Assembly (NCBI RefSeq): GCF_056712565.1
Contig: NZ_CM160072.1
DNA: 64,000 bases
Strand: one strand, 5' to 3'
Position 1 is the first letter of the stretch; each line of letters begins with the position of its first letter. This document shows positions 3,316 to 12,797 of this stretch, piece by piece. The notes under the pieces are model-generated. The model worked only from the letters and a program-made list of their open reading frames with translations, was not told the origin of the DNA and made no database searches. Position numbers and translations under genes: made by a program.

Positions 3316-4003
3316 TCGGAGCAAATTTTTGAATAACGTTGCTCAGGCACTGGGGCGCCCGCTGCGACTTGAACCGCAAGCAGAAGATGCGCCGCTTAAC
3401 AACTATGCTAACGAGCGGCTTACCCAACTTACCCAACAGCAGCGCTGTGACGCGTTTATCCAGTTTGCCAGCGATGTTATGTTGACGCGCTGTGAACTGA
3501 CCAGCGAGGCGAAGGCGGCAGAAGCTGCAATACGTCTGTGTAAAGAGCTGGGAGATCAGTCGGTCGTGATTAGTGGTGACACGAGGCTGGAGGAATTGGG
3601 GATTAGCGAACGTTTGCAGCAGGAATGCAATGCCGTTGTTTGGGATCCGGCGAAAGGTATTGAGAACATATCACAAGCAGAGCAGGCTAAAGTGGGCGTC
3701 GTATATGCTGAATATGGTTTAACCGAATCGGGAGGCGTGGTTCTTTTTTCCGCCGCCGGGCGCGGGCGTTCATTGAGCCTGCTCCCGGAATCTTCTCTTT
3801 TTATCCTGCGTAAAAGCACAATCCTGCCGCGTGTAGCGCAACTCGCAGAAAAATTGCATCAGAAAGCGCAGGCCGGTGAACGAATGCCGTCATGTATTAA
3901 CATCATCAGTGGTCCCAGTTCAACGGCGGACATTGAGCTTATCAAAGTCGTCGGGGTTCATGGTCCGGTGAAAGCGGTGTATCTGATTATTGAGGATTGC
4001 TGA
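3308..4003 (+). CDS. ykgG: LutC-like protein (YkgG)
   Basis: In-frame ATG at 3308 overlapping the ykgF stop gives 231 aa (MDNRSKF...), the expected size; the longer ORF from 3155 is an upstream extension inside ykgF. Confidence 0.85.
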   Translation: MDNRSKFLNNVAQALGRPLRLEPQAEDAPLNNYANERLTQLTQQQRCDAFIQFASDVMLTRCELTSEAKAAEAAIRLCKELGDQSVVISGDTRLEELGISERLQQECNAVVWDPAKGIENISQAEQAKVGVVYAEYGLTESGGVVLFSAAGRGRSLSLLPESSLFILRKSTILPRVAQLAEKLHQKAQAGERMPSCINIISGPSSTADIELIKVVGVHGPVKAVYLIIEDC

Positions 4004-4914: not shown

Positions 4915-5097
4915 AATATATCCAGAAAATGAAATCTGTCGCAGATAAGATTGTATTAATAGTCTGTATCAGGAATGTTCAGGGTAAATATCAGCAAAAA
5001 GCCAGCATCATGAATACTGGATATTTATAGCCTGCAGGCAGCATACTGCTGCCTGCAGGGGGTATAACAGTCGACAGGGGAACCGACTGCTTTATTC

Positions 5098-7395
5098 TTA
5101 CCAGGTCACATTGATACCAACTACACCCTGTAGCGGGTTCTCAATGTCGTCACCTTTGGTGTAGTCAAGGCTTGCATATGCTCCCATGTTTTTGGTGATA
5201 TCAGCCTGTACACCTGCACCCACGCGGAATGCTGCACCGTCAATGCTGGCATTGACAGACTCATCACCCAGACGGACTTTGTTGCCATCAGAGAATTCGT
5301 TCAGTGCGGCCAGATTCAGATAAGGTTTAACGGTCGCGTTGCCCACAGCGAAGTCATAACCCACGCGCGTACCGGCCTCACCCAGCACAGAGTTATAGCT
5401 GTCAGAATGAACGTCCACGCCGTTGAGTTGATAATCCACACCTTCCAGAGTCAGAGCAGACAGTTTGGCATATGGCTGAATAAACAGGCCATTACCGTCT
5501 TTCCATGTGTAACCGCCTTTAACCATCGCACCAAAACCATTGGTGTTAAAGTCAGCTTTGATGGTACCGCCACCATTCATCAGGCGAACATCTGCCGTGT
5601 TGCTGTAGTGACCAAACTGTGCAGCAGTATCAATGAAGATACCGTTGTTATACTGGCGGCTCAGGTAAGCGTGGAAGCTGTAACCTTCAGTGTCACCTTT
5701 GCTCTGCATGGTAGTCATGTCACCTTTCGCAGAAGACATCGCCACACCGGCCAGCCAGCTACCATCTTCAGTCATGAAGCGGGTATCACCACCCAGCATT
5801 ACACCATTTACATCCAGGTCATAGGATGCATTTCCCGCGGTGGTATGTTTCTGTTTACCGCCAAAGTACTGAATCCATACGCCACCCTTGTCATTTTCGC
5901 TCAGACGGACAGCATCCTGACGGGCGGAGAGCGTGTCAGCCTGCAGATTAGCGACGTTAGCCGGAGCAGCTGCCATTGCCTGAATCACGGAGCTGGCGTT
6001 GGATGCTTTATGCGTGTTTTTTACGAAATAAAAGTTACCATCAGCTCCCTGTGTCAGGTCATATTGATACAGACCACCTTCCGTTGTGCCTGTGGCTTTT
6101 AGAGTGCTGTCTTTGCCGGTAGAAATAAATGCCGTTTGTTCATTGATAAGATCCAATGAACCCGCACTGTAAACACGCAAGTCACCGCTCGCTTTACCGC
6201 TGATATCCAGAGTGTTTTCAGAAGAGGCATCAACAATCAGAGTGCCGTTTTGAGAAGCAAACGTGCCAGTATTGACTGTAGCCTTCGTGATATTAACCGT
6301 ACTGTCTTTTACTGCCAGAGCATCAACAGTTGAGGAACCCGTAACATTCCAGACAGACCCGTTTTGCAGAGATACACTGGCATCTCCTGCCCCTGAAACT
6401 TTGCCTTTCCAGACTGAACTATCGGAAAGATTTATATCCAGATCACTACCCGCTTTATCGCCGCTATTGAAGGTATAAGCATTACCTTCCCAGTAAGAGC
6501 GGGCAACGTTCATATTTACATTTGTTGTGGTACTGGCTGAATTCTCGCTTTCAGAAAGGGCCAGGACATCAGAGTAGATGGTTGAATCAGCAACAGACAA
6601 ATTTAAATTTTGCGTTGCTGAACCTGCGCCTTGTGCCGAAGCAGAGGCATAAATTGTTTGTTTATTATTAGCCGCCCCAATTACTGAGCCATCCTTAATA
6701 TTCAGGTTGACTGTATGAATTCCCGTCTTATTCCCGGCAGTAACTATTGTTTCAATCCCGCCATTAATAATATTTGAGTCAGCAAGGGTGATGTTGTCGG
6801 TTGCATCACCGTCAAAACCCTGCAACAAATTACCCTTTTGAGCAAAAATTGCCGTAGAGCCGTTGCTGTAACTCTTATTACCTTGAGCATTTATGGTTGT
6901 ACCATTGAGCGTTAAATTATTTCCCGTGGTCGCTTCCAGAGATATCCCTGTCGCACTACCTTTTTCATTTTTTGCAACGAAATTACCGCCATTAACAACA
7001 ACATCGCCAGTTGAATCAATGACCATTGCAGTCCGGACATAGGTGCCTTCACCTTGAGCTGTGATGGTGGAGTCTGTAGCATTAATCACAACATTTTTGT
7101 TACCACTAACTTTTACACCTTCAACGAAATCTTGGTTTACCGTTGATGCGGCGGTAATATCGTGACCGCCAAAAGTAACATTAAGGTCTTTATCTGAATC
7201 TGACGTTTCAATTGTTACGGCTGTAATCTTGTTATCACCGTTAATAACAACATCTTGATCCAGAGTCGTCTTCTCTGTATTCAGCGTAACCGGATCAGTT
7301 GATACCGTGCTATCAGTAGCGAATGCTGGTGCAGAAAGAGCCATAACAATAGCTGTCGCTAATGCGCTGCGGTAAAATGCCTTACTGTTTTTCAT
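5098..7395 (-). CDS. upaE: Type Va autotransporter: signal peptide, N/T/G/S-rich beta-helix-like passenger, C-terminal beta-barrel ending in W. Possibly UpaE
   Basis: Long ORF; start chosen at MKNSKAF (7395), which has a GGAG motif 9 nt upstream and a classical signal peptide; passenger is rich in short N/T/G repeats; C-terminal roughly 280 aa is barrel-like and ends GINVTW. Symbol by locus architecture from memory, not alignment. Confidence 0.7.
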   Translation of the reverse strand: MKNSKAFYRSALATAIVMALSAPAFATDSTVSTDPVTLNTEKTTLDQDVVINGDNKITAVTIETSDSDKDLNVTFGGHDITAASTVNQDFVEGVKVSGNKNVVINATDSTITAQGEGTYVRTAMVIDSTGDVVVNGGNFVAKNEKGSATGISLEATTGNNLTLNGTTINAQGNKSYSNGSTAIFAQKGNLLQGFDGDATDNITLADSNIINGGIETIVTAGNKTGIHTVNLNIKDGSVIGAANNKQTIYASASAQGAGSATQNLNLSVADSTIYSDVLALSESENSASTTTNVNMNVARSYWEGNAYTFNSGDKAGSDLDINLSDSSVWKGKVSGAGDASVSLQNGSVWNVTGSSTVDALAVKDSTVNITKATVNTGTFASQNGTLIVDASSENTLDISGKASGDLRVYSAGSLDLINEQTAFISTGKDSTLKATGTTEGGLYQYDLTQGADGNFYFVKNTHKASNASSVIQAMAAAPANVANLQADTLSARQDAVRLSENDKGGVWIQYFGGKQKHTTAGNASYDLDVNGVMLGGDTRFMTEDGSWLAGVAMSSAKGDMTTMQSKGDTEGYSFHAYLSRQYNNGIFIDTAAQFGHYSNTADVRLMNGGGTIKADFNTNGFGAMVKGGYTWKDGNGLFIQPYAKLSALTLEGVDYQLNGVDVHSDSYNSVLGEAGTRVGYDFAVGNATVKPYLNLAALNEFSDGNKVRLGDESVNASIDGAAFRVGAGVQADITKNMGAYASLDYTKGDDIENPLQGVVGINVTW

Positions 7396-7436
7396 GAAGA
7401 AATTCTCCATTCTGGTAACTAATTTCAATTTCCCAC

Positions 7437-8198
7437 TTATTTATATTTATGCAGAGATAAAGCCTGCGTCCCTGCATTTACCACCACGGAATACCTGTTG
7501 GTATTTCCGTTTTCACGCAATGTCATGGCATTCGTTGTTTCCAATGCATTTCCATCACCGTGAAAATTATTGCTGCTCAGCAGCAGGGCTTCCCGCAATG
7601 ACATGCTGTCCGGTATTCCCCAACGCTTTTTTAGCGACTGCTCGGCAAGCCATATCTGTCTTATCCCCGTTTTGAGAAACTGCGCACTGTATTCCCAGCT
7701 GTGTCCGGCAAGAAGTAACGACAACACCTTCTTTTGCTTTTCCGGGAAGCGTTCTGACATGACGATTGTCTTTGTGCGGTTATTCACCTCTTTCATAAAG
7801 ACAGAGTAACTGTCCATAACTGGCAAAATTTCTGCATGCTTCAGCCCTGAAAACCCACCAGAGGCATTTGCAATACTGATGACACGCTCTACTGACATTC
7901 CTGGTTTCAGTAACCTCAGGTTTTTGAGAACGCCAGAAATACTCACATCCGGTGGCAGAAAAAAGGGCGTGACGCACAACACCACCACGAATGAGTGATC
8001 CCGATAAAATCGGAACCACATTTCAGCGCATTCGGCAGGTCGCCCTGCCGATATCACGACACTCTGTGGCCTGTGCCGCAATTTATTGCGTAACTCCTCT
8101 TCTGTTCTGATGCAGGTAACATTGCCGACAGAACCGGTTGATAGAGCTGCGAACTGCGCTGGTACAATTCCTGAGGGACAGAAAAGAACGAAACGCAT
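7437..8198 (-). CDS. Hypothetical regulator with a degenerate LuxR/GerE-type HTH region
   Basis: 253-aa ORF directly upstream of the autotransporter (8-bp gap); segment LSLLLAGHSWEYSAQFLKTGIRQIWLAEQSLKKRWGI loosely resembles a LuxR HTH. Confidence 0.5.
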   Translation of the reverse strand: MRFVLFCPSGIVPAQFAALSTGSVGNVTCIRTEEELRNKLRHRPQSVVISAGRPAECAEMWFRFYRDHSFVVVLCVTPFFLPPDVSISGVLKNLRLLKPGMSVERVISIANASGGFSGLKHAEILPVMDSYSVFMKEVNNRTKTIVMSERFPEKQKKVLSLLLAGHSWEYSAQFLKTGIRQIWLAEQSLKKRWGIPDSMSLREALLLSSNNFHGDGNALETTNAMTLRENGNTNRYSVVVNAGTQALSLHKYK

Positions 8199-8351
8199 CC
8201 TTCCCTCACAGATGTCAGTACGCCAGCACGCTGTACAGGCTGTACAGCGTGCCTCCCAATCCTGCAGCCCAGAACAGTAGAAATATTTTGGCTCCTACAC
8301 TGTAGCGAGTCCGTATGCGCCGCAGTGGGTGGTAGTAACAACGCTGCTGTG

Positions 8352-9146
8352 TCATAACAATCCTGGTCTTTTTTTAGATATATTTTTTCTTTGTCCGGAA
8401 AGTACTTTTCCGGAAATGGCGTCAGAATTTATTGATTCACCAACGGCAACTTTCTCTGGATAAAGGATTCCGGATACCATGTTCTGCACATACTGAGTGA
8501 GTCGATGAGCGGAATGTTGTCCGATATATTTTGCATGTAGCCGTATATTCCGTTTCACTCTGCTGTCACCGCATCCCGTATAGAGCAGCCTGAAATCGCT
8601 CAGTGTTCCCAGTCCAAGTTTCATTAAAGCCCGTGTGGCAATCGCATGCAGGGTCTTTGAACTGCGTTGTTCATAACGGGCAATCTCACTGAAACTCATG
8701 CCCTGCATCAGAATCTTAAGCACGCTCAACTCCCGTGCAGTCAGGAGCCAGAAATCGCTCATATCGCCGGGCAAAGGACGTAGTAACCAGCGGATAATTT
8801 GATTCTGATAACGACTCGCTGTCAGCATGGTGCCGATGCGTGGGAAGCCGTTATACAGACTTGCAGCAGGAGCATTATCGAACCAGTCGGAGTCACCGGT
8901 CAGGCAGACCTGCCATTGCCCGGCATCACTCCGCAAACGGGCGAGACAAGCCAGAAGAACCAACTCCCCCGAAGGAAGCGAAGGGATATCAGCTAACAGG
9001 TAGCCACAGGAGGTCTTTAAAACGAATTCAACCTCTGTAGTGACGTTGCTGTACACCCGCACGATATACCTGTCCGTTGGGATGAGAGACTCCAGTGCCA
9101 GCCTGGTGAACTGACAGGCACTGATAATAACCAGAGGCTTCTTCAT
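8352..9146 (-). CDS. ipuR: LuxR/GerE-family transcriptional regulator, possibly IpuR
   Basis: 264-aa ORF; clear LuxR-type HTH (LTARELSVLKILMQGMSFSEIARYEQRSSKTLHAIATRALMKLGL); first gene downstream of the candidate invertible element. Symbol by architecture only. Confidence 0.65.
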   Translation of the reverse strand: MKKPLVIISACQFTRLALESLIPTDRYIVRVYSNVTTEVEFVLKTSCGYLLADIPSLPSGELVLLACLARLRSDAGQWQVCLTGDSDWFDNAPAASLYNGFPRIGTMLTASRYQNQIIRWLLRPLPGDMSDFWLLTARELSVLKILMQGMSFSEIARYEQRSSKTLHAIATRALMKLGLGTLSDFRLLYTGCGDSRVKRNIRLHAKYIGQHSAHRLTQYVQNMVSGILYPEKVAVGESINSDAISGKVLSGQRKNISKKRPGLL

Positions 9147-9172
9147 TCAGACTCGTCCACGCCATTGCTACA

Positions 9173-9465
9173 AAACCTGACATTTTGATTCAAAATGTCA
9201 GGTTTGGTTTAATAGCCTGAATATTTAATTTTCTTGGAATATAAATCTGATTTGTTTGATTTTTATTGTTTTTAATTTTGTATTATTTAACAATATGGGC
9301 GAAAGTTAATCACTGGTATGACCTTTGTGATTAATCATTTCAAATCATGGGGTTATTTTACTTTAGCTAGAAATATCAACATGTTATGTGTTTTATTTAA
9401 TTGAATGGGCTGTTTTTTTATGGAAGAATTGAGGAAAACGTAGGAATCTGACATTTTGAATCAGA
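9173..9465. promoter_or_regulatory. Candidate invertible promoter switch: 12-bp perfect inverted repeats (tcaaaatgtcag at 9190-9201, ctgacattttga at 9448-9459) flank a 246-bp AT-rich segment; a 33-bp perfect palindrome spans 9173-9205
   Basis: Repeats read directly from the sequence; element sits between the recombinase stop (9476) and the LuxR gene start (9146), the same layout as fimE-fimS-fimA. Confidence 0.6.
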
Positions 9466-9475
9466 AGGTACTGTT

Positions 9476-10039
9476 TTAACGAGGCTTTTTTTTCCACACC
9501 CCTTTAAAACGAGCAGCATTACTGGCTGTGTATCTGACAGTATGCTGAATATTTCGATGACCCAGGTAATCCTGAAGTAGTCGGGTATCGACACCATTGT
9601 CAGCCAGAGCAAAACCACAGGCATGACGTAACATATGAGGATGTGCTTTTACAGCTAATCCTGCACGTTTTCCAGCCTCACGAATGATAGAAAAAAAATG
9701 TTGTCTGCTGATAGGGCGGCGTTTCCGGGAGAGAAAAAGCCAGTCTCCTTCAACTCCGTTTTCAATTAACTTCCTCTGCTTAAGCCACAACTTGATCAAA
9801 TTATATTCATCAGGAAGAAGAGGATGTGTTGTCGAGAAACCATTTTTAATACGCCGAATATTAAGTTGTTTTCCAGATGCATCAATATCGGATAAACGTA
9901 AATCAAGAAGTTCACTGGCCCTAAAACCGTGAATGAAAGCCATCATAATCAGACAGCGATTTCTTTCAGGAAAGGACATGCTCTGGGCTGCATCCATCAG
10001 CCTGTAGACTTCATCCTGTGTGAGATATTTTCTCGTCAT
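9476..10039 (-). CDS. ipuA: FimB/FimE-family tyrosine site-specific recombinase, possibly IpuA
   Basis: About 187-200 aa with FimB-like motifs (HGFRASE, GFSTTHPLL, HPHMLRH, CGFALA, DTRLLQDYLGHRNIQHTVRYTASNA); no fimbrial genes adjacent. ATG at 10039 preferred; alternative GTG at 10078. Confidence 0.8.
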   Translation of the reverse strand: MTRKYLTQDEVYRLMDAAQSMSFPERNRCLIMMAFIHGFRASELLDLRLSDIDASGKQLNIRRIKNGFSTTHPLLPDEYNLIKLWLKQRKLIENGVEGDWLFLSRKRRPISRQHFFSIIREAGKRAGLAVKAHPHMLRHACGFALADNGVDTRLLQDYLGHRNIQHTVRYTASNAARFKGVWKKKPR

Positions 10040-11108
10040 ACGCCACCGTGTACAGTTGTAAAAAAAAGAGAGGCACACCCAGATAAGTATGCCTGCAATC
10101 AGAACGTTATCGATGTAATCTCATTATCTCATTAATAAGATTTTTTGAATAGTAGTTCTACGCAACAGATTAAATATGAACTATTTATTGTGCAGCTTTT
10201 CTACAAGTCATTTTTAATGCGTGTTTTTATCTACTATAATGTGAAAAAAATAAATATTAAAACTATGAGTGACAGGTCGTGTGGGATGTGTATTACGTCT
10301 AATGCTTTAGTAATTTTTTATTATTTCTGAGATATTTAACATCATTTCCTGTGAGATTGTCTTGTTGTGTATCTAATTGATTTTAATTTTGTTTTTTTTG
10401 ATGCATAAATTTGGATGATAGAAAGTAAGATTAGCTTAATATCAATGATATGAATTTATAAATACATATTGTTGCAAGGTGTTCTTTACTTTTTTGGTCG
10501 TTAGTAAATCATTGTTAATGGGTTCTGTTCATAAATTAAAAATATTCATTTAAATGATTTTTACTTTTTGTATATCTCAATTTGTTTATTTTGCATTCAT
10601 TTGATGGAGAGTATTCCAACACTTTTTATTTTTCGCAAAAAACTTATTAACAACTTTTTATTATCAATTGAAAATTAATGTAAACTAAAATGTTAGCGAA
10701 GCGATAATCTTGTGCTAAAAAATATTTAAGCATGATGATTAATTAAAGAAGAGTAAAAATAAATCGCTGCTAATAAATTATACGAACCGTGTTTAAAGCT
10801 CCATGTGGTTTTGGTCTGACTTATTTTTGTACTCGTTACAAGAACCCTTTTCGTACATGCTAACCGTGAGCGGGAATGAACAGGTAACCATAGCCAGGAA
10901 CATTAGCGGCGTAATTCTTAAGCTGAGTGGTATTTCATCTGTAGTTTATCTGTGTATGCATAGCACCTTCATCAGCCAGATTGAGCAAGTCAGCTTAGAA
11001 TTTGCTGGTGAGATTGTCACGATGAAGCATGAGAGTTACCTCAGTGTTTTATATAAGGATTCGGTCCTCATAGTAGAACGGTAACTCTCAATCTGATAGG
11101 TTCCTGAG

Positions 11109-12797
11109 TCAGTTCACATCACGACTCATTTTTTTCGCTCTCACCGGCATCCCATTTGCCACAAAATATCTTGCCGTGCTCCTCGGCAACGCATCCTTCC
11201 CGCGAATCATATCCGCCATTTTCTCGCCAATCATAATCGTCGTGGCGTTCAAATTGCCGGTGATAATCTGCGGCATAATTGACGCATCCACCACGCGCAG
11301 GCCTTCCAGCCCGTGTACGCGGCCTTCGGCGTCAACCACTGCCATCTCGTCATAACCCATTTTGCAGGTACCGCACGGGTGGAAGGCGGTTTCGGCGTGG
11401 TTACGCACGAACTCATCGAGCTGCTCATCCGTCTGGCATTCGACACCGGGGCTGATTTCGCGGCCACGATACTGATCCAGCGCCGGTTGATGCATGATCT
11501 CCCGGGTGATGCGAATTGCGTCGCGGAACTCCTGCCAGTCCTGCTCGTGCGACATGTAGTTAAACAGAATCGCCGGATGCTGGTGCGGGTCGCGGGATTT
11601 AATCCGCACATGCCCACGGCTTGGCGAGCGCATCGATCCGACGTGGCACTGGAAGCCGTGCTCTTTCACTGCGTTCGAGCCGTTATAGTTAATCGCCACT
11701 GGCAGGAAATGGTACTGAATATTCGGCCACGCAAATTCCTCACGGCTGCGAATAAATCCGCCTGCTTCAAAGTGGTTGCTGGCACCAACGCCGGTGCCGC
11801 CAAACAGCCACTCCGCACCGATTTTCGGCTGATTCCACCACTGCAGGGCAGGGTAGAGGGAAACCGGTTCTTTGCACTCATATTGCAGATACATCTCCAG
11901 GTGATCCTGAAGATTTTCGCCGACGCCAGGTAATTCATGCACCAGCGGAATATCAAACTCCGCCAGCAGTTCAGCGTTGCCGACGCCGGAGCGTTGCAGG
12001 ATCTGCGGTGAAGCAATCGCGCCTGCACATAACAGCACTTCTTTATTCGCCGCCGCGCGGGTCGGAATGGTGCTGTCGCCTTCCAGCCACTCGACGCCCA
12101 CCGCGCGTTTGCCGTCAAAAAAGATGTGATCGGTCATGGCGTGAGTACGAATGGTCAGGTTAGGGCGCGATTTGGCCTGATCGAGATAGCCACGCGCGGT
12201 GCTGGCGCGACGGCCATGCGGCGTGACGGTGCGATCCATCGGGCCAAAACCTTCCTGCTGATAGCCGTTGAGATCGTCCGTGCGCGGGTAGCCCGCCTGC
12301 ACGCCCGCTTCAATCATCGCTTCAAACAGCGGATTGACGCCGGGTTTGGAGGTGGTGACGCTCACCGGGCCATCACCGCCGTGGTAGTCGTTCTCGCCCA
12401 CATCGCGAGTCTCGGCCTTGCGATAGTAGGGCAGGCAGTCGAGATAACTCCAGTTCTCCAGACCAGGTGCTTGTGCCCAGTTATCGAGATCCAGCGCATT
12501 GCCACGGATGTAGCACATACCGTTGATCAGCGATGAACCGCCCAGACCTTTGCCGCGTCCGCACTCCATGCGGCGGTTGTTCATAAACGGTTCGGGTTCC
12601 GTCTCATAGGCCCAGTTGTAGCGTTTGCCCTGTAGCGGGAACGCCAGCGCGGCGGGCATCTGGGTGCGGAAGTCAAAGCGATAGTCCGGGCCGCCTGCTT
12701 CAAGCAGCAGCACGGTTGTGTTCGGATCTTCAGTCAGACGGGTAGCGAGAACGTTGCCGGCTGAGCCGGCACCAATAATGATGTAGTCAAATTGCAA
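11109..12797 (-). CDS. betA: Choline dehydrogenase BetA (GMC oxidoreductase, FAD-binding)
   Basis: N-terminal GAGSAG FAD motif; apparent TTG start at 12797 with AGGAGG 5 nt upstream; the ORF-track ATG at 12842 would lie inside betB. Confidence 0.9.

Follow-up and report, generated by a model that had tools for sequence, protein, structure and literature searches.

The intergenic region between the recombinase gene fimX and betA, at the right end of the 6.0-kb islet PAI-X (5025-11021 of the window, by which we mean the whole 64-kb stretch of DNA analysed), is most likely an ordinary non-coding regulatory region of a known islet, containing a spurious open reading frame (ORF). The islet is placed between betA and the terminator of the bet operon, and its genes share the orientation of betIBA; on these grounds we read the spacer as a fimX control region combined with a buffer that would keep bet transcription out of the recombinase gene, an account that we regard as fairly probable. 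Three elements of it are, as far as we have checked, new: the exact junctions of the islet, the separation of betA from its terminator by the islet, and a conserved terminator-like hairpin ahead of fimX.

The PAI-X islet and its hyxS switch have been described before (PMC3789825, PMC6083910). The window holds exactly that islet in its described place beside betA, between ykgH and betA, with the published gene order fimX-hyxR-hyxA-hyxB and with hyxS between fimX and hyxR; the same islet is missing from islet-negative E. coli. The RefSeq annotation of a strain identical over the spacer names hyxB, hyxA, hyxR and ipbA ('also known as HbiF and FimX') and calls no feature within the spacer. The initial annotation had let the recombinase begin at a GTG at 10078. 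RefSeq places its start at the ATG at 10039, and the GTG extension crosses an A/T tract that ranges from 6 to 9 nucleotides; since the length of this tract differs between strains, the GTG cannot be the real fimX start. With fimX starting at 10039, the true spacer extends from 10040 to 11108 (1069 bp).

Both ends of the islet were located by blastn against an islet-negative strain, in which ykgH and betA are adjacent (Table 1). The junctions display a 2-bp AT microhomology; terminal repeats or a target duplication were looked for at the islet ends and none was found. The right-hand boundary does fall within the interval where it had been expected at the outset, but not at betA itself: the last 87 bp of the spacer (11022-11108) are core DNA. 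Accordingly distributed, these 87 bp alone are common to 4901 of 5426 complete E. coli genomes, and the full spacer occurs in 1879 of them. There is one copy per genome and no paralogue was found; phages gave no match, and the only 'plasmid' matches are mislabelled chromosomes. In the literature outside the primary PAI-X papers (Bateman & Seed 2012; Bateman et al. 2013; Bryan et al. 2006), we found nothing on the spacer, the hairpin, the hypervariable core or the exact junctions. The published accounts of PAI-X that we consulted have the genes and the hyxS switch as their subject (PMC3789825, PMC6083910).

Table 1. Features of the fimX-betA spacer and its surroundings, in window positions.
Feature	Position	Strand	Details
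Native bet-operon terminator	5002-5020	-	CCAGUAUUCAUGAUGCUGG followed by a U-rich tail; after hyxB, parted from betA by the 6-kb islet
Left PAI-X junction	5024/5025		blastn against islet-negative strain
hyxB/upaB	5098-7428	-	ORF list and RefSeq names in identical strain
hyxA	7437-8198	-	ORF list and RefSeq names
hyxR	8352-9146	-	ORF list and RefSeq names
hyxS inverted repeats	9172-9204 and 9445-9477		between fimX and hyxR; inverted-repeat search
fimX (= ipbA/hbiF)	9476-10039	-	RefSeq start, identical strain
fimX 5' untranslated end	10040-10059	-	Shine-Dalgarno-like GGUGG, the complement of 10043-10047; ATG 10039-10037; invariant in four alleles
Intrinsic-terminator-like element	10060-10094	-	stem-loop 10094..10071, CUC linker, U tract 10067..10060
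Weaker alternative promoter-like site	10113 to 10086	-	TCGATA (10113)-16-CATACT (10086); transcripts from it would begin within the hairpin loop
Near-invariant proximal block	10095-10219	-	presumed fimX promoter/operator
Operator-like palindrome	10117-10142		AATCTCATTA-N6-TAATAAGATT
Same palindrome, fimX-sense strand	10142..10117	-	AATCTTATTA-N6-TAATGAGATT
Extended -10 promoter-like site	10151-10123	-	TATTCA (10151-10146)-17-TGaGATAAT; -10 hexamer 10128-10123; promoter scan; overlaps the palindrome
Conservation, proximal	10040-10165		95-98% identity in all four alleles; near-continuous invariance to 10219
Conservation, next segment	10166-10310		81-89% identity between alleles
Hypervariable AT-rich core	10240-10630 (approx.)		GC about 23%; three discrete E. 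coli classes and a fourth in a cryptic clade
Conservation, core	10311-10630		66-74% among E. coli classes, minimum 56-63% at 10337-10437; 57-69% to fourth allele
Conservation, distal block	10631-10857		93-95% to O157-type; 87-91% to L004-type outside its insertion
93-aa ORF	10803-11084	+	ATG start; judged spurious
Conservation, islet end	10858-11021		79-90% identity between alleles
Right PAI-X junction with core DNA	11021/11022		blastn against islet-negative strain; inside the 93-aa ORF
Long core-genome hairpin just after betA stop	11030-11090	-	inverted repeat without U tract; z = -3.2 (+), -5.1 (-)
betA stop codon	11109-11111	-	
betA	11109-12797	-	betB and betI next after betA

The GC content is 30.5% over 10079-11108 and 24.8% over 10145-10800. 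The latter interval is the most AT-rich stretch of its length in the window, and the eleven lowest-GC segments of 656 nt in the 64 kb all start between 9901 and 10401. The longest runs made of A and T only measure 19 nt (at 10244) and 16 nt (at 10311 and at 10531). The long A/T runs that had first drawn attention to 10145-10800 are thereby borne out. As in H-NS-silenced DNA, the AT content is far above that of the host (24.8% GC vs 50.7% for the whole window), and this richness fits silencing by H-NS. Helical phasing of A-tracts was looked for in the spacer and not found, and the count from a scan of the spacer for an H-NS motif (TCGATAAATT, up to two mismatches allowed) is uninformative. An RNA copied from the spacer in the direction of fimX would be C-rich and G-poor, with a C/G ratio of 3-4 at 10470-10350. 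Such a composition is what Rho prefers. Since the ORF list contains no minus-strand ORF of at least 30 aa in 10100-10790, this RNA would also be untranslated.

The stretch was from the start thought to hold no convincing gene, and we agree: its ORF fails the coding tests and no small ORF is conserved across alleles. The 93-aa ORF reported on the plus strand is present, and it has no recognisable family (best Pfam match at E = 0.098). Islet DNA supplies its codons 1-73, and core DNA the remaining codons 74-93 with the stop. In our judgement it is very probably no gene but a frame that happens to be open across the boundary between islet and core. A real, young, E. coli-specific small protein, made either from the whole frame or as a 75-aa core from an internal Met, would be in keeping with several observations. 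Block shuffling of the region yields an ORF this long (at least 93 aa) in only 2.65% of cases, so its length is mildly unusual; its central 55 codons remain open across all the alleles compared; gene callers predict it in many assemblies; and an AlphaFold model, although poor as a whole (mean pLDDT 59, pTM 0.47), has a pLDDT of about 70 over residues 20-60. Such a protein is nevertheless very improbable, for besides crossing the junction the frame has neither a stable start nor a stable end. The ATG is replaced by ACG in three alleles, the O157-type and L004-type among them. In the L004-type, a 96-nt insertion brings in stop codons after codon 18, and the C-terminus is read in at least four different frames among gene-caller products from other strains. 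No Shine-Dalgarno sequence precedes either candidate ATG, and RefSeq PGAP does not call the ORF. The 55 islet-encoded codons give dN/dS values of 0.30-0.87, inside the range covered by five control frames, and that the frame stays open between alleles is the chance expectation (P = 0.72 and 0.41). Homologues sought among 5.8 billion proteins, and by a profile search of 1.84 billion representatives, were limited to E. coli 'hypothetical' copies and fragments. Altogether, we find no conserved start, stop and frame, no frame-specific purifying selection, no homologue outside E. coli and no recognisable family or fold. The initial annotation, which had offered this ORF as a possible hidden small protein, had itself named lack of conservation in related strains as what would tell against it, and neither start nor end is conserved there.

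The suggestion of a small protein hidden elsewhere in the spacer fares no better, as the alleles share no small ORF. A 28-aa minus-strand ORF (10647-10733) occurs in three alleles, but 9 of its 28 residues change and it is without a Shine-Dalgarno sequence; we rejected it. We likewise rejected a 44-aa 'hypothetical protein' called by PGAP in the core of the O157-type allele, which shrinks to 14, 22 and 4 codons in the other alleles. Separately, 18 nt at 9602-9619, inside fimX, are complementary to 10804-10821; by our own estimate about 0.1 such matches are expected, and we judge this one to be chance.

Conservation points to the opposite end of the spacer. We compared four alleles: the B2-type of the window, the O157/W619-type, the L004-type (86 genomes) and a fourth from Escherichia sp. 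MOD1-EC7003. The 180 bp nearest fimX (10040-10219) are near-invariant in these deeply diverged alleles, though fimX dS reaches 0.25, and the proximal block is at least 90% identical in all 1889 genomes. Measured against neutral sites, conservation is much stronger in these 180 bp and much weaker in the core. The initial annotation had proposed the stretch as the promoter region of the recombinase; its place directly upstream of fimX and the near-invariance of the 180 bp next to the gene uphold this. We consider 10040-10219 to be most likely the fimX control region. A promoter scan of this part picks out an extended -10 promoter-like site that overlaps an operator-like palindrome, as well as an alternative, poor and in three alleles poorer still, whose transcripts would begin in the hairpin loop and thereby bypass the hairpin. 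These sites match the promoter consensus only weakly, and DNA of this kind is rich in such matches; a scan gave 4 against 8.3 expected in shuffles. We infer the use of the fimX-proximal sites as promoters: the promoter-like site with its palindrome, followed by the leader, would control fimX.

Between this putative promoter and the gene lies the terminator-like hairpin. Its stem has 10 bp, and its U tract ends about 20 nt before the fimX ATG. The tract is U8 in the window and ranges from U6 to U9 across strains, close relatives included. Folding gives -12.9 kcal/mol in the window and -7.4 for the same sequence as plus-strand RNA; the value reaches -14.8 kcal/mol in the L004-type and L011 alleles, in the fourth (cryptic-clade) allele and in one B2-type strain (L010). 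For comparison, the native bet terminator folds with -8.0 kcal/mol. The single substitution in the stem, at 10089, replaces a U.G pair by C-G in the minus-strand RNA. Pairing is thereby kept only on the fimX-sense RNA, as the ancestral state would be a C.A mismatch on the plus-strand RNA. From the betA stop to the fimX ATG, a terminator scan found no second site of this kind on the minus strand. With a G+C-rich stem-loop and a U tract on the transcribed strand, set apart by a 3-nt linker in most alleles, the element is the sequence signature of an intrinsic terminator for transcripts that would head to fimX. In consensus folding, a signal appears only for the minus strand of the proximal block (z = -2.1) and for the long hairpin after betA.

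The origin of such transcripts is suggested by the site of insertion. In the islet-negative strain L003, a canonical terminator, CCAGTATTCATGATGCTGG-T6 (3998..3980), immediately follows the betA 3' hairpin; the same element stands at 5020..5002 in the window, at the far end of the islet. The islet lies within 4 nt of the bet terminator stem, and every one of its genes is co-oriented with betIBA. Since the islet lies between betA and the bet terminator with its genes so oriented, transcripts leaving betA would run into the spacer. There they would meet 1 kb of untranslated, AT-rich RNA, C-rich and G-poor, that would suit Rho and probably also H-NS. Those that continued would reach the conserved hairpin and U tract shortly before the start codon of fimX, where they may be terminated. 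The arrangement recalls the protection of the IS10 and IS50 transposases. The transposase genes of these elements are shielded from outside transcription by fold-back inhibition or by terminal terminators. The likeness is that of a recombinase gene preceded by an RNA hairpin acting on outside transcripts, and of a weak promoter-like site that would start transcripts inside the hairpin. The analogy is one of logic only, with no sequence relationship; moreover, the internal promoter-like site of fimX is weak, and weaker still in three alleles.

Some features sit less easily with an insulator. If the fimX promoter is upstream of the hairpin, the gene's own transcripts would be stopped as well, which would make the hairpin an attenuator and not an insulator. 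The 3-nt linker between stem and U tract, found in most alleles, makes for a weaker terminator. Bet transcripts might already terminate, or gain stability, at the long hairpin that follows betA (11030-11090), and the hypervariable core is left unexplained by an insulating role.

The first of these points leads to the main rival of the insulator reading, a regulated attenuator or leader-derived small RNA. Here transcription would begin upstream of the hairpin, for instance near 10116 under the extended -10 site; the majority of transcripts would end at the hairpin and U tract and release an RNA of about 55 nt, and fimX would be expressed by read-through only, tuned by some factor or by the length of the U tract. 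The invariance of the extended -10 site and its position upstream of the hairpin suit this scheme, as do the short distance from hairpin to start codon and a U tract varying from 6 to 9 among closely related strains. Typical enterobacterial small RNAs consist of a 5' single-stranded stretch and then a terminator hairpin, and the predicted RNA, with about 25 single-stranded nucleotides ahead of its hairpin, resembles them. The fold, on the other hand, offers no alternative anti-terminator pairing, and the upstream stem that folding predicts loses a G-C pair in the L004 allele. Nor does any Rfam family match: at permissive E-values the spacer yields chance-level matches only (best E 2.2-9.4, far below the gathering scores), which also deprives the small RNA suspected in the initial annotation of support. 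We therefore rate an attenuator as rather unlikely, and retain the control region with its insulating buffer as the preferred reading. We also tried a leader-peptide attenuator, based on an 8-codon minus-strand mini-ORF (about 10213-10187) that four alleles retain; we rejected this scheme because the mini-ORF lacks a Shine-Dalgarno sequence and is 90 nt away from the hairpin.

Upstream of the conserved block, the spacer diverges strongly. Between classes the flanking genes are 98-99% (fimX) and 97.5-99% (hyxR) identical, vs 66-74% for the core. Over the 1889 genomes, core identity to the window is bimodal: about 990 genomes are at 94.6% or more and 884 at 60-80%. The divergence is real and not an alignment artefact, as blastn aligns the cores at 72-76% over about 304 nt (E 1e-39 to 1e-50). 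For fimX, dS ranges from 0.05 to 0.085 when the E. coli classes are compared with one another and from 0.19 to 0.25 when they are compared with the fourth allele; hyxR has a dS of 0.03-0.06. The core changes roughly 3-5 times faster than nearby synonymous sites, and does so at all depths. Within the B2-type, the window differs from L007 at 1 of 564 fimX positions and at 11 of 335 in the core, and from L006 at 2 of 564 and 16 of 335. Between classes, 7 of 564 fimX positions differ from L005, with 71 substitutions and 15 gap columns in the core, and 11 of 564 from L004, with 110 core differences. The other AT-rich spacer of the islet, that of hyxS, is 95% identical between classes, which is about dS. 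When more divergent relatives were sought with one genome per species, fimX turned up in Escherichia sp. MOD1-EC7003 alone, and a metagenome scan returned the two common alleles only.

Discrete, diverged alleles between near-identical flanking genes are what we observe here, as in switched or hypervariable intergenic regions. Horizontal regulatory switching was reportedly described by Oren et al. in 2014, and 'switched IGRs' of E. coli are said to have been treated by Thorpe et al. in 2018. The present locus shares with them flanking genes of 98-99% identity around a core in discrete classes at 60-80%. It differs in that the alleles are still homologous and that the excess divergence is also found between close relatives; this pattern is more suggestive of a locally fast clock than of one replacement event. 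The excess may reflect a mutational hotspot, selection favouring altered regulation, or foreign alleles imported repeatedly.

Beyond its proximal promoter, the spacer could be largely functionless AT-rich filler, silenced by H-NS and drifting freely, its hairpin the relic terminator of a lost upstream gene. The region 10240-10857 indeed has no conserved ORF, in the core or elsewhere, no RNA family and no consensus structure in the core or the distal block, with both strands folded (z of the distal block between 0 and -1). The identity of the distal block is about that predicted from the flanking synonymous rate, being no greater than that of those sites, so that constraint is not implied, and IS insertions and deletions are tolerated in the locus. 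Drift alone does not, however, predict a core evolving 3-5 times faster than synonymous sites beside a hyxS spacer that keeps to about dS, nor a hairpin kept in four alleles with a stem-preserving change. We consider such filler unlikely, and continue to favour a control region joined to a transcriptional buffer.

Fim-type recombinase genes usually adjoin their own switches, as noted in PMC6083910, and a pair of 14-nt inverted repeats (10132-10145 and 10637-10650) lies in the spacer. Another FimX-type invertible, phase-variable element here is nonetheless scarcely credible. We searched for half-site-bearing repeats about 300 bp apart and for both orientations in assemblies, and found neither: the hyxS half-site CTGACATTTTGA is absent from 10040-11108, and the only inverted repeats in the spacer are AT-rich and of chance quality. 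The match is a single collinear block in about 1880 of 1890 genomes, against 113 disrupted records and 31 extra places in the hyxS control. In addition, FimX overexpression in UTI89 or CFT073 produced no new inversions genome-wide (PMC6458436). The spacer thus resembles the hyxS, fimS and ipuS switches in being AT-rich non-coding DNA beside a recombinase gene of the same family, with the islet in common, and differs from them in lacking such repeats, half-sites and inversion polymorphism; hyxS itself lies on the other side of fimX.

A parallel in layout is the nanC-fimB region of E. coli K-12, another long, gene-free, AT-rich stretch upstream of a Fim-family recombinase (1455 bp, 64% AT, vs 1069 bp here). 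The fimB upstream region integrates distant regulator sites and H-NS. Similarity between the two loci is confined to the coding regions and does not extend to the upstream DNA; the spacer has no homology to the fimB or fimE upstream regions, and we recognised no NanR, NagC or IHF site in it. It is also more AT-rich, and carries its hairpin by the start codon.

FimX is the recombinase able to switch type 1 pili on in uropathogenic E. coli, and is reported to be the remaining ON-switching recombinase in the fimB-null ST131 clone (PMC6083910). A further target is hyxS, which FimX inverts and which governs a regulator of nitrosative-stress tolerance and O-antigen chain length (PMC3789825). The control of fimX itself is barely described. 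Our analysis leaves the general understanding of such regions unchanged, removes a false gene candidate, the 93-aa ORF, and yields two modest leads. The map offers targets in the form of the 180-bp invariant block, the leader hairpin, the co-orientation with betIBA together with the loss of the bet terminator, and the lineage-specific spacer alleles. As PAI-X is nested in the 3' end of the betIBA transcription unit, osmotically and choline-induced read-through could reach fimX, in amounts set by the hairpin, the variable U tract and the fast-evolving core. Osmotic stress would then be coupled to FimX switching of fimS and hyxR, differently in B2 and non-B2 strains. We regard this as a long shot; if true, it would tie osmotic stress to the switching of type 1 pili (fimS) and hyxR in a lineage-dependent manner.

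The PAI-X islet is under decay in several lineages. In the O157:H7 strain L002, ipbA (fimX) is frameshifted, hyxR contains an internal stop and hyxB lies in fragments. Elsewhere, ipbA is a pseudogene (L010), ISEc8 has replaced both hyxR and fimX together with some of the spacer (L009), or an IS3 element adjoins hyxR (L021).

On the left, just past hyxB, the islet opens on a strong palindrome of high G+C content, GCCTGCAGGCAGCA-TACT-GCTGCCTGCAGG. It is presumably the terminator of hyxB itself, so that a tandem pair of terminators would now stand there.

On the right, core DNA immediately past the betA stop codon forms a long, conserved, imperfect hairpin with an 11-bp outer stem and a consensus folding z of −3 to −5; the islet junction lies 8 nt past it. 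This hairpin is without a U tract; it may stabilise RNA 3′ ends or belong to the bet terminator region. The betA product itself has 562 amino acids in the window, versus 556 in a number of other strains, some of them close B2 relatives. The difference comes from a T homopolymer (A on the coding strand), seven residues long in the window and six in the strains with the shorter product; the extra T displaces the stop and appends MSRDVN at the C-terminus.

Coordinates of the features (window positions, unless a strain is named)
Feature	Position	Remark
Left-end palindrome	5025-5066	
hyxS half-site regions	9170-9208 and 9445-9477	three copies of the half-site
Half-site pair, hyxR side of hyxS	9177+ and 9190-	perfect palindrome
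Single half-site, fimX side of hyxS	9448+	
24-nt motif, hyxS	9265-9288	
24-nt motif, spacer core	10376-10399	
Extra segment, L004 and L008	after 10857	96-97 nt
betA 3′ hairpin	11030-11090	
betA 3′ region	11109-11137	holds the T run
betA T run	11131-11137	
hyxS deletion region, L004	L004 1836-1905	holds the hybrid site

Within the spacer, a T-rich 24-nt motif, ATTG(T/A)TTTTAATTTTGT, recurs with 21 of 24 positions matching a stretch inside hyxS, the invertible switch between fimX and hyxR. Its ATTGATTTTA part is among the very few stretches of the hypervariable core that are invariant in all four alleles. The motif could be a protein-binding site common to both regions or, in T-rich DNA, a coincidence. 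The L004-type allele additionally carries an extra segment in the spacer. The segment is single-copy, found at this locus alone, present in 86 genomes and no repeat element; the other alleles may have lost it from an ancestral state.

The 86 L004-type genomes are devoid of hyxS, through a precise deletion of 271 bp. In the window, the switch is bordered by copies of the half-site CTGACATTTTGA, paired on one side and single on the other. At the deletion point the L004-type strains retain a hybrid site, AACCTGACATTTTGATTCAGAAGG, which is the outcome expected of recombination between the two direct half-site copies of hyxS. Loss of the switch in these strains would fix hyxR expression in a locked state.
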